From Escherichia coli (GTDB lineage Bacteria > Pseudomonadota > Gammaproteobacteria > Enterobacterales > Enterobacteriaceae): a stretch of 64,000 nt of DNA. Shown one piece after another: positions 1 through 13,070 of the stretch (position 1 is its first letter; every line of letters begins with the position of its first letter). The stretch is taken from NCBI RefSeq assembly GCF_017348835.2, contig NZ_CP071375.1; one strand, given 5' to 3'. The notes under the pieces were generated by a model, which was not told the DNA's origin, ran no database searches, and saw nothing but the letters and a program-made list of their open reading frames with translations. A program made the translations under genes and the position numbers.

Positions 1-497
1 AAATCTGGACCATTCCCGCCACAAGGGAAACAATTGAGAAAGTCCGTTTCTCTGGCCGTGGCGCAAAAATGCGTACTCCACATATTGTGCCACTTTCCCG
101 ACAGGCTATTGCCATTCTGAAGCAGATACAGGATATCTCAGGTCATCTGGATCTGGTGTTCCCCGGTGATCATAATCTCTATAAGCCAATGAGTGAAAAC
201 ACCACCAACCGGGCACTGCGGTTAATGGGCTATAACACAAAAACCGATGTGTGTGGTCATGGCTTTCGGGCAATGGCCTGTAGCGCGCTGGTGGAATCCG
301 AACTCTGGTCACGGGATGCCGTGGAGCGGCAGATGAGCCATCAGGAGCGCAACAGTGTGCGGGCGGCATATATCCATCGTGCTGAACATCTTGATGCCCG
401 TAAAGCCATGATGCAGTGGTGGTCGGATTATCTGGACGTGAGCCGCGAGGGGTACGTTGCGCCTTATATTTATGCGCGGCGGCATAAGGCGGCCTGA
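1..497 (+). CDS. P4-type tyrosine integrase, C-terminal catalytic portion (partial; 5-prime end outside window)
   Basis: Reading frame is open from the window edge to the stop at 497. C-terminal motifs HGFRAMACS, RAAYIHRAEH and MMQWWSDYLD are typical of P4/CP4-57 IntA-family integrases. Confidence 0.8.
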   Translation, partial: IWTIPATRETIEKVRFSGRGAKMRTPHIVPLSRQAIAILKQIQDISGHLDLVFPGDHNLYKPMSENTTNRALRLMGYNTKTDVCGHGFRAMACSALVESELWSRDAVERQMSHQERNSVRAAYIHRAEHLDARKAMMQWWSDYLDVSREGYVAPYIYARRHKAA

Positions 498-528
498 GCC
501 AGTCATTGCGTAATTTTCTGATAATGGA

Positions 529-566
529 AAAGCAGATCCTGATTGAATTCGGATCTGCTTTTTACA
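529..566 (+). terminator. Intrinsic terminator downstream of the integrase fragment
   Basis: 10-bp stem aagcagatcc/ggatctgctt with 11-nt loop followed by a T-run. Confidence 0.5.
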
Positions 567-888
567 TTAGACAATCTGCACCAGAAACTGATTTACCGGT
601 ACGCCATAACTGCACCAGTTCAATGCCACCGTTTACCTGCGCCAGTCTGCCGTCGCCCATTTATATCAGGACTGCGCCAGATACCATCGGATAAACATCG
701 ATCTGCGCCAGCTTTAGCCTTTTAAGCCCTTTGGCCTTTTCCGGTCTGGCGCTGTTACCCTTAGCCGCCCTTTACCTTTATCTGGCCTTTTTCTGGCGCA
801 ATGATCAGAAAAATACCGTAATGCTGCACCAGAATCCTGTTAATAGGCTATACCGTTCGTAAGCACCGTTATTAAGGGGAAACCGTAC

Positions 889-914
889 AAAAAATTTCTA
901 CGTAGAAATTTTTT
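889..914. repeat. Perfect 26-bp palindrome aaaaaatttctacgtagaaatttttt
   Basis: Read directly from the sequence; shares the arm gtacaaaaaattt with the palindrome at 3391-3426 on the other side of the IS66 element. Confidence 0.6.
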
Positions 915-11725: not shown

Positions 11726-11814
11726 ATTAGAAGAAAAGCCGTGGTTTCTAAACCAAGGATTGAACCGCCCCGGAAATCCTGGAGACTAAACTCCCTGAGA
11801 AAGAGGTAAACAGG

Positions 11815-12141
11815 ATGACTAAAAATACTCGTTTTTCCCCCGAAGTCCGTCAGCGGGCGATTCGTATGGTTCTGGAAAGTCAGGATGAATATGACTCACA
11901 GTGGGCGGCAATTTGTTCCATTGCCCCAAAGATTGGCTGTACGCCGGAGACTCTGCGTGTCTGGGTTCGCCAGCATGAGCGGGATACCGGGAGTGGTGAT
12001 GGTGGACTCACCACCGCTGAACGTCAGCGTCTGAAAGAGCTGGAACGTGAAAATCGTGAACTGCGCCGCAGTAACGATATCCTTCGCCAGGCTTCCGCTT
12101 ATTTTGCGAAGGCGGAGTTCGACCGCCTCTGGAAAAAATAA
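11815..12141 (+). CDS. IS3-family transposase OrfA (helix-turn-helix/leucine-zipper part)
   Basis: 108-aa ORF with the IS629/IS1203-type OrfA sequence. Confidence 0.85.
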
Positions 12142-13028
12142 TGCCACTGCTGGATAAGCTGCGTGAGCAGTACGGGGTCGGACCGGTATGCAGCGAACTG
12201 CATATTGCCCCGTCAACGTATTACCATTGTCAGCAACAGCGACATCATCCGGATAAACGCAGTGCCCGTGCGCAGCACGATGACTGGCTGAAGAAAGAGA
12301 TACAGCGCGTATACGATGAAAATCACCAGGTATACAGTGTGCGTAAAGTCTGGCGTCAGTTGTTACGGGAAGGTATCAGAGTGGCCAGATGCACTGTGGC
12401 ACGTCTCATGGCAGTTATGGGACTTGCCGGTGTTCTCCGGGGTAAAAAGGTCCGCACTACCGTCAGCCGGAAAGCCGTTGCCGCATGCGACCGCGTAAAC
12501 CGTCAGTTCGTGGCAGAACGTCCAGACCAGTTGTGGGTGGCTGATTTTACCTGGGTAAGCACATGGCAGGGCTTCGTTTATGTGGCGTTCATCATTGATG
12601 TGTTCGCCGGATACATCGTGGGATGGCAGGTCTCATCATCCATGGAAACAACATTCGTGCTGGATGCACTGGAGCAGGCGTTGTGGGCCCGTCGGCCGTC
12701 CGGCACAATCCATCACAGTGATAAAGGTTCTCAGTATGTATCGCTGGCCTACACGCAGCGGCTTAAGGAAGCCGGATTACTGGCATCAACAGGGAGTACT
12801 GGCGACTCGTATGACAACGCGATGGCTGAGAGCATCAATGGTCTTTACAAAGCGGAGGTAATACACCGTAAGAGCTGGAAAAACCGGACAGAAGTGGAAC
12901 TGGCCACACTAACGTGGGTGGACTGGTATAACAATCGACGATTGCTGGAAAGGCTGGGCCATATTCCTCCGGCAGAAGCAGAAAAAGCTTATTATGCTTC
13001 CATCGGAAATAATGATCTGGCAGCCTGA
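12141..13028 (+). CDS. IS3-family transposase OrfB (DDE catalytic part)
   Basis: 295-aa ORF overlapping orfA as in IS3-family frameshift arrangements. Confidence 0.85.
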   Translation: MPLLDKLREQYGVGPVCSELHIAPSTYYHCQQQRHHPDKRSARAQHDDWLKKEIQRVYDENHQVYSVRKVWRQLLREGIRVARCTVARLMAVMGLAGVLRGKKVRTTVSRKAVAACDRVNRQFVAERPDQLWVADFTWVSTWQGFVYVAFIIDVFAGYIVGWQVSSSMETTFVLDALEQALWARRPSGTIHHSDKGSQYVSLAYTQRLKEAGLLASTGSTGDSYDNAMAESINGLYKAEVIHRKSWKNRTEVELATLTWVDWYNNRRLLERLGHIPPAEAEKAYYASIGNNDLAA

Positions 13029-13070
13029 GTTCACAGATAAAACACTCTCCAGGAAACCCGGGGCGGTTCA

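Follow-up and report, generated by a model that had tools for sequence, protein, structure and literature searches.

A P4-related integrative island at asnT of Escherichia coli, probably one element later truncated by insertion sequences

The first 13,070 nucleotides of a 64,000-nucleotide stretch of Escherichia coli chromosome (NZ_CP071375.1; the whole stretch is called the window here) combine two recombinase genes, two insertion sequences (ISs), a toxin-antitoxin pair, a regulator gene and an AT-rich block of putative defence genes, and the question raised by this locus is whether these parts arrived one after another or together. The original prediction, made from the window alone, described a layered mosaic at a tRNA-associated hotspot, with the 5' part of yeeJ replaced. 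The parts that it listed (two recombinases, IS66, a ChpS/ChpB-like pair, a Ner-like operon and an AT-rich two-gene operon) were all found at or near where it had placed them, and its end point, position 13070, is the exact right end of an IS629-like element. We consider it very probable that positions 1-13070, with about 0.9 kb to their left, are a single P4-related integrative asn-tRNA defence island, later truncated by insertion sequences.

Window positions 1-13500 were 100% identical to the chromosome of E. coli PE164 (NZ_CP114128.1; pig, China), and positions 1-13070 were also identical to that of E. coli F2_81 (pig, Australia). The left boundary was located in a 12 kb flank (L001; window position = L001 position - 12000), where serU, mtfA and asnT (tRNA-Asn) are followed by the start of the integrase gene, 149 bp past asnT. 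asnT itself lies about 0.9 kb left of the window edge. The integrase gene, predicted to run past that edge, starts 765 bp left of it, and the full coding sequence (L001 11235-12497) encodes 420 aa. Homology to K-12 ends 5 bp past the asnT 3' end and picks up again inside yeeJ; at the empty site in K-12, asnT is directly followed by yeeJ. The tRNA gene is the one that had been named from synteny, and, as had been anticipated, the left boundary lies outside the window, with no tRNA gene or att site found inside 1-13070. Leftward extension thus gave the expected integrase start and tRNA gene, but not the expected direct repeat of the asnT 3' end, for which no match at ≤3 mismatches was found right of the PE164 island. 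The repeat is present in N17, an intact relative: two perfect 17-bp copies of the asn-tRNA 3' end (CCAGTCAGAGGAGCCAA), in direct orientation, stand 13.3 kb apart. The attR repeat missing in PE164 has been lost by deletion. The island would have entered the asnT 3' end by site-specific recombination. The features of its backbone, from left to right, are as follows.

1..497, plus strand: P4-type tyrosine integrase, 3' end, the last 142 codons being 69-497 (RefSeq)
870..935, no strand: hairpin unit A, an AT-rich palindrome then GGATAACGATGAATAA, conserved in relatives
3376..3515, no strand: hairpin units B and C, palindrome then AAAACCGATGRATAAC, downstream of the small recombinase gene
3536..4420, minus strand: small tyrosine recombinase, 294 aa (Pfam Integrase_1 5e-63, Phage_int_SAM_2 1e-35)
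4526..4655, minus strand: EFASI RNA motif (Rfam RF02957, 118.7 bits vs. gathering score 51.2)
4983..5122, minus strand: STAXI-like RNA or single-stranded DNA motif (Rfam RF01728, 37.3 bits vs. gathering score 40.5, E 9e-6, full model length)
5270..5860, minus strand: type II toxin-antitoxin pair (NCBIfam)
6209-6415, minus strand: Ner/SfsB-like helix-turn-helix (HTH) gene (SfsB 8e-31; PHROG 769 'transcriptional repressor' 2e-31)
6412-6873, minus strand: orf153, an open reading frame (ORF) of 153 aa that overlaps the Ner-like gene
6882..7132, minus strand: P4/P1-type antisense-RNA immunity leader (Rfam)

Counts of relatives were made over 5426 complete E. coli genomes. The small-recombinase segment (3384-4893) was present in 39 of them, always on the chromosome. 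Relatives were inspected in N17 (at asnU), CFIAFB20190157 (asnW), LF82 and PM06121 (asnV) and Citrobacter braakii (next to yeeO), so that the island family was seen at all four E. coli asn-tRNA genes (asnT, asnU, asnW, asnV) and in Citrobacter. The order common to them is integrase gene, hairpin spacer, Integrase_1 gene, toxin-antitoxin slot ('MazEF' or 'RelE/HTH'), Ner-like gene with orf153, and variable cargo. In CFIAFB20190157 the cargo comprises a large P-loop protein, hypothetical proteins and avs3b, annotated as AVAST type 3; in LF82 it comprises two large unknown proteins, then genes annotated as ATP-dependent nuclease and UvrD-domain helicase.

A hotspot at which independent elements (two integrase elements, a toxin-antitoxin pair, a regulator, defence cassettes) piled up in turn would account for several features of the locus. 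GC content differs strongly between modules, as had been predicted (IS66 60%, backbone genes 55-59%, IS3-family element 53%, the AT-rich block 36-37% vs. 55-60% in its neighbours), two recombinase genes and two insertion sequences are present, and the toxin-antitoxin slot and cargo vary between relatives. However, integrase gene, hairpins, Integrase_1 gene, EFASI, toxin-antitoxin slot, Ner/orf153 and C4 leader keep a fixed order at four asn tRNAs and in another genus, and a single attL/attR pair encloses the whole N17 island, with no internal att repeat. This fixed order and the one repeat pair around N17 place both recombinases in one element. Secondary arrival is demonstrable for just two parts, the IS66 element (4 of 5426 genomes) and the IS629-like element. 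Serial accumulation is therefore very unlikely, and the 'layered' build-up of the original prediction did not hold; its proposal of an accessory island at a tRNA gene, bearing defence cargo and an integrase of P4 type, did.

The single-island reading takes the P4-type integrase beside attL, and a leftward operon under a C4/CI-type antisense leader, to be the chassis of the element. Aligned over 98% of its length, the integrase shows 51% identity with phage P4 Int; its Citrobacter orthologue has the domains Arm-DNA-bind_3, Phage_int_M and Phage_integrase. In the leader, the Rfam models C4 (83.2 bits), isrK (72.6 bits) and c4-a1b1 (48.0 bits) all scored above their gathering scores. Its parts, on the minus strand, are given in the direction of transcription.

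7132-7080, minus strand: c4-a1b1 motif (Rfam)
7119-7039, minus strand: isrK-type hairpin and terminator (Rfam)
7095-7088 and 7074-7067, minus strand: upstream C4 targets a1 and b1 (complementarity in sequence)
7013-6927, minus strand: C4 antisense RNA (Rfam)
6923-6916 and 6892-6885, minus strand: downstream C4 targets a2 and b2 (complementarity in sequence)

The C4 loops, CCAGUAUG and UUCCAA, are complementary to the a1/b1 and a2/b2 targets, and the b2 target overlaps the GGAGG Shine-Dalgarno sequence of orf153. The C4, isrK and a1b1 models match phage P4 at the cI (CI RNA) locus, in the same order as in the island. The P1 C4 and P4 CI RNAs are precedents for repression by a processed antisense RNA. 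By analogy, processed C4 RNA would pair with its targets over the orf153 ribosome-binding site and keep the leftward operon, of which orf153 is the first gene, switched off; it should block translation or transcription of the downstream operon. orf153 had no Pfam match, alone or as a family, and no PHROG match. Its AlphaFold model is a confident four-helix bundle (pLDDT 94.6), for which Foldseek against PDB and BFVD returned generic helical bundles only, none at E ≤ 0.001. The early operon of a canonical P4-like satellite encodes a homologue of 39% identity, flanked by the small early ORFs on one side and the epsilon and primase genes on the other.

These likenesses would also be expected of a functional phage satellite of P4 type that relies on a P2-like helper for packaging, since the Int and the C4/CI RNA immunity leader are of P4 type, orf153 is common to a P4-like satellite, and an 'ash family protein' is annotated in PM06121. 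The core set of P4-like satellites comprises alpha (primase), epsilon, sid, delta, psu and an AlpA/Vis-type excisionase. Homologues of the P4 alpha primase, epsilon, sid, delta, psu, vis and cII were found neither in the PE164 island nor in the intact N17 island, the PHROG scan of the island gave no replication or structural matches, and attR is missing here. For the PE164 copy this candidate was rejected, only Int having matched among 12 P4 proteins, and we find it scarcely credible. The integration and immunity modules of the island are related to those of P4, but the element as a whole is no P4-like satellite.

Between the two P4-type modules lies the small recombinase with its hairpins and RNA motifs, which the preferred reading counts as part of the same island and as a module held in common with conjugative elements. 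The residues R148, K180, H242, R245, H276 and Y283 did not vary among 7 homologues, the most distant at 48% identity; judged from the alignment, the catalytic residue set is intact. This RKHRH-Y set, which relaxases of the MpsA/MobK/TcpM type also have, is common to all tyrosine recombinases. Past the stop codon stand 1-3 hairpin units, each an AT-rich palindrome then AAAACCGATGRATAAC, whose arm sequences vary across units and strains with self-complementarity kept. Folded as single-stranded DNA (ssDNA) against shuffled controls, unit A gave z = -3.7 and unit B z = -6.8; unit C is degraded here. In LF82 and C. braakii the spacer holds a single hybrid unit, which joins a left arm like that of unit C to an outer right arm like that of unit B. 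Such a hybrid hints at recombination between adjacent units, with the units as substrates; a role as recombination sites, as a resolution site or as an origin of transfer (oriT) is conceivable for them.

EFASI, some 105 nt ahead of the small recombinase gene, was conserved in 4 of 4 relatives scanned; the sub-threshold STAXI-like match lies 330 nt further upstream. The order STAXI-EFASI-Integrase_1 also occurs in pSGI4, the circular form of an integrative and conjugative element (ICE), and in a conjugative IncFIB/HI1B plasmid of Klebsiella whose recombinase has 48% identity to the one here. The Rfam text, as quoted in PMC12370729, gives the function of EFASI and STAXI as unknown. In pSGI4 (L018 2051-4675) the Integrase_1 gene is flanked by two STAXI copies, with EFASI ahead and an ArdC-like gene nearby, a setting that looks leading-region-like. 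An 11-kb Salmonella 'plasmid' (OX345322) with a 75%-identical recombinase was considered as an excised circle and rejected; it is a linear contig of a fragmented assembly. Searches of the small recombinase, EruA and the HEPN protein (see below) against PDB sequences returned nothing at E ≤ 1.

The same module could make the family an integrative mobilizable element, in which the Integrase_1 recombinase acts on the hairpins as oriT (like MpsA of SGI1 or MobK of pIGRK) or as a resolution system, and which rides conjugative plasmids or ICEs and was disabled in PE164 by IS66 and loss of attR. The shared STAXI-EFASI-Integrase_1 order in the SGI-4 ICE and the Klebsiella plasmid, the conserved catalytic residues, and hairpin units that fold strongly as ssDNA and keep their palindromes while their arms differ are all consistent with this, and tyrosine-recombinase-like relaxases are documented (PMC6414798, PMC8152469). 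Relaxases of this kind have no core-binding domain and are needed for conjugative mobilisation from an adjacent oriT (PMC8152469, PMC6414798). The recombinase here does have such a domain, N-terminal and SAM-like (Phage_int_SAM_2), absent from MpsA and MobK (PMC8152469), and this speaks against its being one of them. Moreover, no known relaxase, oriT or coupling-protein gene was found in the island, and most plasmids with recombinase homologues are typed as non-mobilizable. Mobilisation of this kind is rather unlikely.

Upstream of EFASI and STAXI, the toxin-antitoxin slot holds a pair whose NCBIfam matches are all below the equivalog cut-offs. By these scores its proteins are family-level ChpS/ChpB-like members, not equivalogs. 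The pair is probably an addiction module; in N17 the slot holds RelE/HTH instead.

5603-5860, minus strand: MazE/ChpS-like antitoxin (MazE 62.9 bits, 2e-17; ChpS 45.4 bits, 7e-12)
5270-5602, minus strand: MazF/ChpB-like toxin (ChpB 116.5 bits, cut-off 129, 6e-34)
5248-5222, minus strand: terminator-like hairpin after the toxin gene (terminator scan)

How the island lost its right end is read from the insertion sequences, which would mark later decay in the lineage of PE164 and F2_81.

999..3343, minus strand: IS66-family element (tnpA, tnpB, tnpC; genes 1063-3262) (RefSeq)
11761..13070, plus strand: IS3-family (IS629-like) element, copy 1, 1310 bp, with 25-bp inverted repeats (TGAACCGCCCC...), at the eruA-yeeJ junction
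13071..16498, plus strand: yeeJ 3' half (inverse autotransporter adhesin), pseudogene remnant, K-12 yeeJ from about nt 3605 at 86% identity
24253..25562, minus strand: IS629-like element, copy 2, 1 nt different, inserted in yeeO with a 3-bp duplication (GTC / GTC)

The ends of the IS66-family element, GTAACGTTCC...GGAACGTTAC, were set by a 95.8% identical copy elsewhere, and its terminal inverted repeats begin with GTAA. It interrupts the AT-rich spacer that separates hairpin unit A from unit B and would have landed between these repeats. Compared with the empty site in CFIAFB20190157, 13 bp are replaced and there is no target duplication, the flanks GATTTATC and AATTTAAT being different; the IS66 family normally makes an 8-bp target-site duplication.

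The IS3-family element, which we take to be IS629-like, has two ORFs linked by frameshifting; it contains an ALIL frameshift pseudoknot (120 bits) and is annotated 'programmed frameshift' in RefSeq. Copy 1 has the flanks GAT and CTG without a target duplication and copy 2, a simple insertion, has GTC on both sides, which marks copy 1 as a rearrangement junction. To its left is codon 390 of eruA, the antiphage gene of the cargo, and to its right yeeJ begins at a point about 3.6 kb along the 7,020-nt K-12 gene, so that the predicted replacement of the 5' part of yeeJ is confirmed. The element would have been left at a deletion of about 7 kb that took the eruA promoter and codons 1-389, the remainder of the island including attR, the spacer from asnT to yeeJ and, within yeeJ, 3.6 kb; this amounts to some 3.1 kb of island (judged from N17, the eruA 5' end, an AAA ATPase gene and attR) and some 4.0 kb of chromosome. 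With no attR the integrase has no partner site, so precise excision should not occur and the island should be immobilised. yeeJ is a pseudogene, annotated 'missing N-terminus, internal stop' in RefSeq. Its remnant is 86% identical to K-12 vs. 97.6% for the neighbouring yeeL/shiA region; with the truncation, this makes it a divergent allele as well as a truncated one. F2_81 has the 23-kb segment between the IS629-like copies (yeeJ' to yeeO') in the opposite orientation, with exactly the exchange of flanks expected from recombination between them. Copy 2 is the recombination partner for this inversion.

The attR-proximal end would be a cargo slot for defence genes, holding here an AT-rich two-gene block (7244-11725, minus strand, 36-37% GC) in which EruA then TPR-HEPN_LA2681 would be two separable single-gene modules in tandem.

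8861..11760, minus strand: eruA 3' remnant (NACHT antiphage gene), residues 390-1354 of 1354
7244..8848, minus strand: TPR and HEPN_LA2681 protein, 534 aa, intact (Pfam PF18733 1e-40, residues 307-510)

The remnant was assigned by NF058535, the NCBIfam equivalog 'NACHT domain-containing antiphage protein EruA' (curated cut-off 1000 bits), which it matched over profile positions 399-1318 only (649.6 bits vs. the cut-off of 1000, 1e-194). The N17 EruA (1354 aa) scored 1129.8 bits over positions 1-1318, and the remnant aligns to its residues 390-1354 at 97% identity. The Walker A motif, GDPGAGKT, occupies residues 35-42 in the complete protein and so falls outside the remnant, which has no promoter, Walker A or Walker B. 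The predicted defence cargo is therefore present but broken, EruA having lost its first 389 residues, Walker A included. Without the NTPase core the remnant should be inactive. The HEPN protein, with an RNGLEH motif at residues 448-453, is a candidate RNase effector; its gene starts 12 bp after the promoterless eruA remnant and, although intact, would have lost its upstream promoter context.

EruA with HEPN was the cargo in 8 of 5426 genomes, intact in 6 (N17 and five other human isolates) and truncated in 2 (PE164 and F2_81). An obligate two-gene system was considered and rejected, each gene standing solo in distant genomes (3 for HEPN, 4 for EruA). The solo HEPN_LA2681 homologues, about 50% identical, belong to a Budvicia island, a Cellvibrio ICE region and a Vibrio Tn7-like element, and EruA homologues at 70%, 50%, 37% and 37% identity have no HEPN neighbour (4 of 4), the pair being kept only in close relatives. 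The pair was also seen on a contig of Logan SRR16940103 (L013 4918-10614), near pth/ychF and with integrase fragments; this other chromosomal context indicates that the pair moves between islands. In N17 a gene for a 518-aa ABC-type AAA ATPase (L002 18720-20276), deleted in PE164, separates eruA from attR. Its product weakly matches PtuA, MADS3 and retron-effector ATPases, and it is a possible third gene for defence.

The block might still defend PE164, either through the intact TPR-HEPN_LA2681 alone or through an N-terminally truncated EruA whose expression would be driven by the IS629-like element or by an internal promoter. The HEPN gene is full length with its RNGLEH motif, its homologues stand alone in other mobile elements, and the truncated eruA ORF is still open for 946-954 codons. 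The eruA promoter and NTPase core are gone, however, the HEPN gene follows eruA by 12 bp with no obvious promoter of its own, and defence activity of HEPN_LA2681 is not documented in the libraries searched (PADLOC). We give residual defence a fairly small chance.

Several points weigh against the preferred reading, that of one P4-related defence island later truncated by ISs. When 12 P4 proteins were searched by tblastn, the 11 other than Int had no homologue in the PE164 or N17 islands, and the kinship with P4 would come down to Int, the RNA leader and one ORF. The C4 model gave no match in the P4-like satellite that carries the orf153 homologue, so the link between orf153 and the C4 leader comes from the island family only. 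The deleted right end of PE164 is taken to have resembled that of N17 (AAA ATPase and attR), and the deletion could have occurred in more than one step. Literature on 'Eru' as a defence system was not found, only unrelated uses of EruA/HyoA/Eru, which leaves the NCBIfam name as the sole source of the antiphage role, and PADLOC gave no match for 8 island proteins. Excision, transfer and defence are putative for every member of the island family.

A bolder extension would treat the 39-genome family as an unrecognised class of minimal asn-tRNA 'hitcher' islands, with a P4-derived chassis (Int and the C4/CI RNA switch) and a STAXI/EFASI/Integrase_1/hairpin module taken from conjugative elements. 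The recombinase would nick or recombine the hairpins, which would act as an origin of transfer, the C4 switch would sense a helper and trigger excision, and swappable defence cargo (EruA and HEPN, avs3b-linked, others) would be shuttled among Enterobacteriaceae, PE164 being a dead copy. We think this scenario rather improbable.

The window itself is of small import, since it holds a decayed island in one pig-associated lineage and its breaks are explained by ordinary IS activity. The region shows how asn-tRNA islands lose mobility and cargo, with the adhesin gene yeeJ lost as a side effect. A small conserved chassis with varied defence cargo at all four E. coli asn tRNAs is a place to look for defence genes, and EFASI/STAXI beside an intact Integrase_1 recombinase and hairpins in a 13-kb element is a simpler setting than a 100-kb ICE. 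The role of the EFASI/Integrase_1/hairpin module in so small a chassis is the main loose end.

Two neighbouring regions were also noted. A Qin/DicB-type prophage remnant (dicA, dicB, dicC, ydfABCD, exonuclease; L001 1-9901) lies left of the window; it has a frameshifted integrase and abuts serU, just upstream of mtfA and asnT, which places two tRNA-linked elements within 2 kb. After asnV come about 9 kb of sugar phosphotransferase system (PTS)/pentose-phosphate genes (hxlB, rpe, two PTS IIABC sets, regulators), at about 28376-38000 of the window (L025 26225-35625), before ldtA and without an integrase. This hxlB cluster, which also follows the asnV island in PM06121, may be an old insertion at asnV that has no integrase.

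Compared with known systems, the island is close to satellite phage P4 and the cryptic CP4-like elements of E. coli, with an Int 51% identical to that of P4 beside a tRNA attL, a leftward operon led by an a1b1-isrK-C4 module in the order of the P4 cI locus, and one early-operon ORF (orf153) in common with a P4-like satellite. It also carries accessory cargo at its far, attR end; P4 and P4-like satellites are likewise laid out with accessory cargo at the attR-distal end. Unlike P4, it has no alpha primase/ori/crr, epsilon, sid, delta, psu or vis, it targets an asn tRNA and not leuX, and it has an Integrase_1 recombinase/EFASI module and a toxin-antitoxin slot that are absent from P4. EARL (Enterobacteriaceae-associated ROD21-like) islands also use Asn-tRNA genes, with a P4-like integrase beside attL and direct repeats of the tRNA 3' end (PMC6035254), and so have target and integrase type in common with the island. 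They are 19-34 kb long and defined by a recombination directionality factor (RDF) near attR, most have MobA/MobL relaxase, TraD and type IV pilus genes, and many have H-NS paralogues (PMC6035254). Genes for RDF, MobA/MobL, TraD, type IV pilus and H-NS paralogues were neither annotated nor detected in PE164 or the intact N17 island, and the island is not EARL/ROD21-like.

In STAXI-EFASI-integrase modules (RF01728/RF02957), EFASI lies about 100 nt upstream of an Integrase_1-type gene and STAXI further up, as in pSGI4 and the Klebsiella plasmid; the arrangement is the same here, but STAXI is sub-threshold (37.3 vs. 40.5 bits) and the 13-kb island is without conjugation genes. Bacterial NACHT (NLR-related) proteins such as EruA have, when complete, an N-terminal P-loop NTPase and a long C-terminal region (DUF8371). 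Close full-length relatives pass the NF058535 cut-off, whereas the window copy, lacking residues 1-389, fails it; unlike distant EruA genes, it is followed by an HEPN_LA2681 gene. As for the breaks, an IS without target duplication at a deletion junction and an inverted second copy are what is seen in IS629/IS3-family deletions and inversions in E. coli, and the locus is in this respect a textbook case, with nothing unusual.

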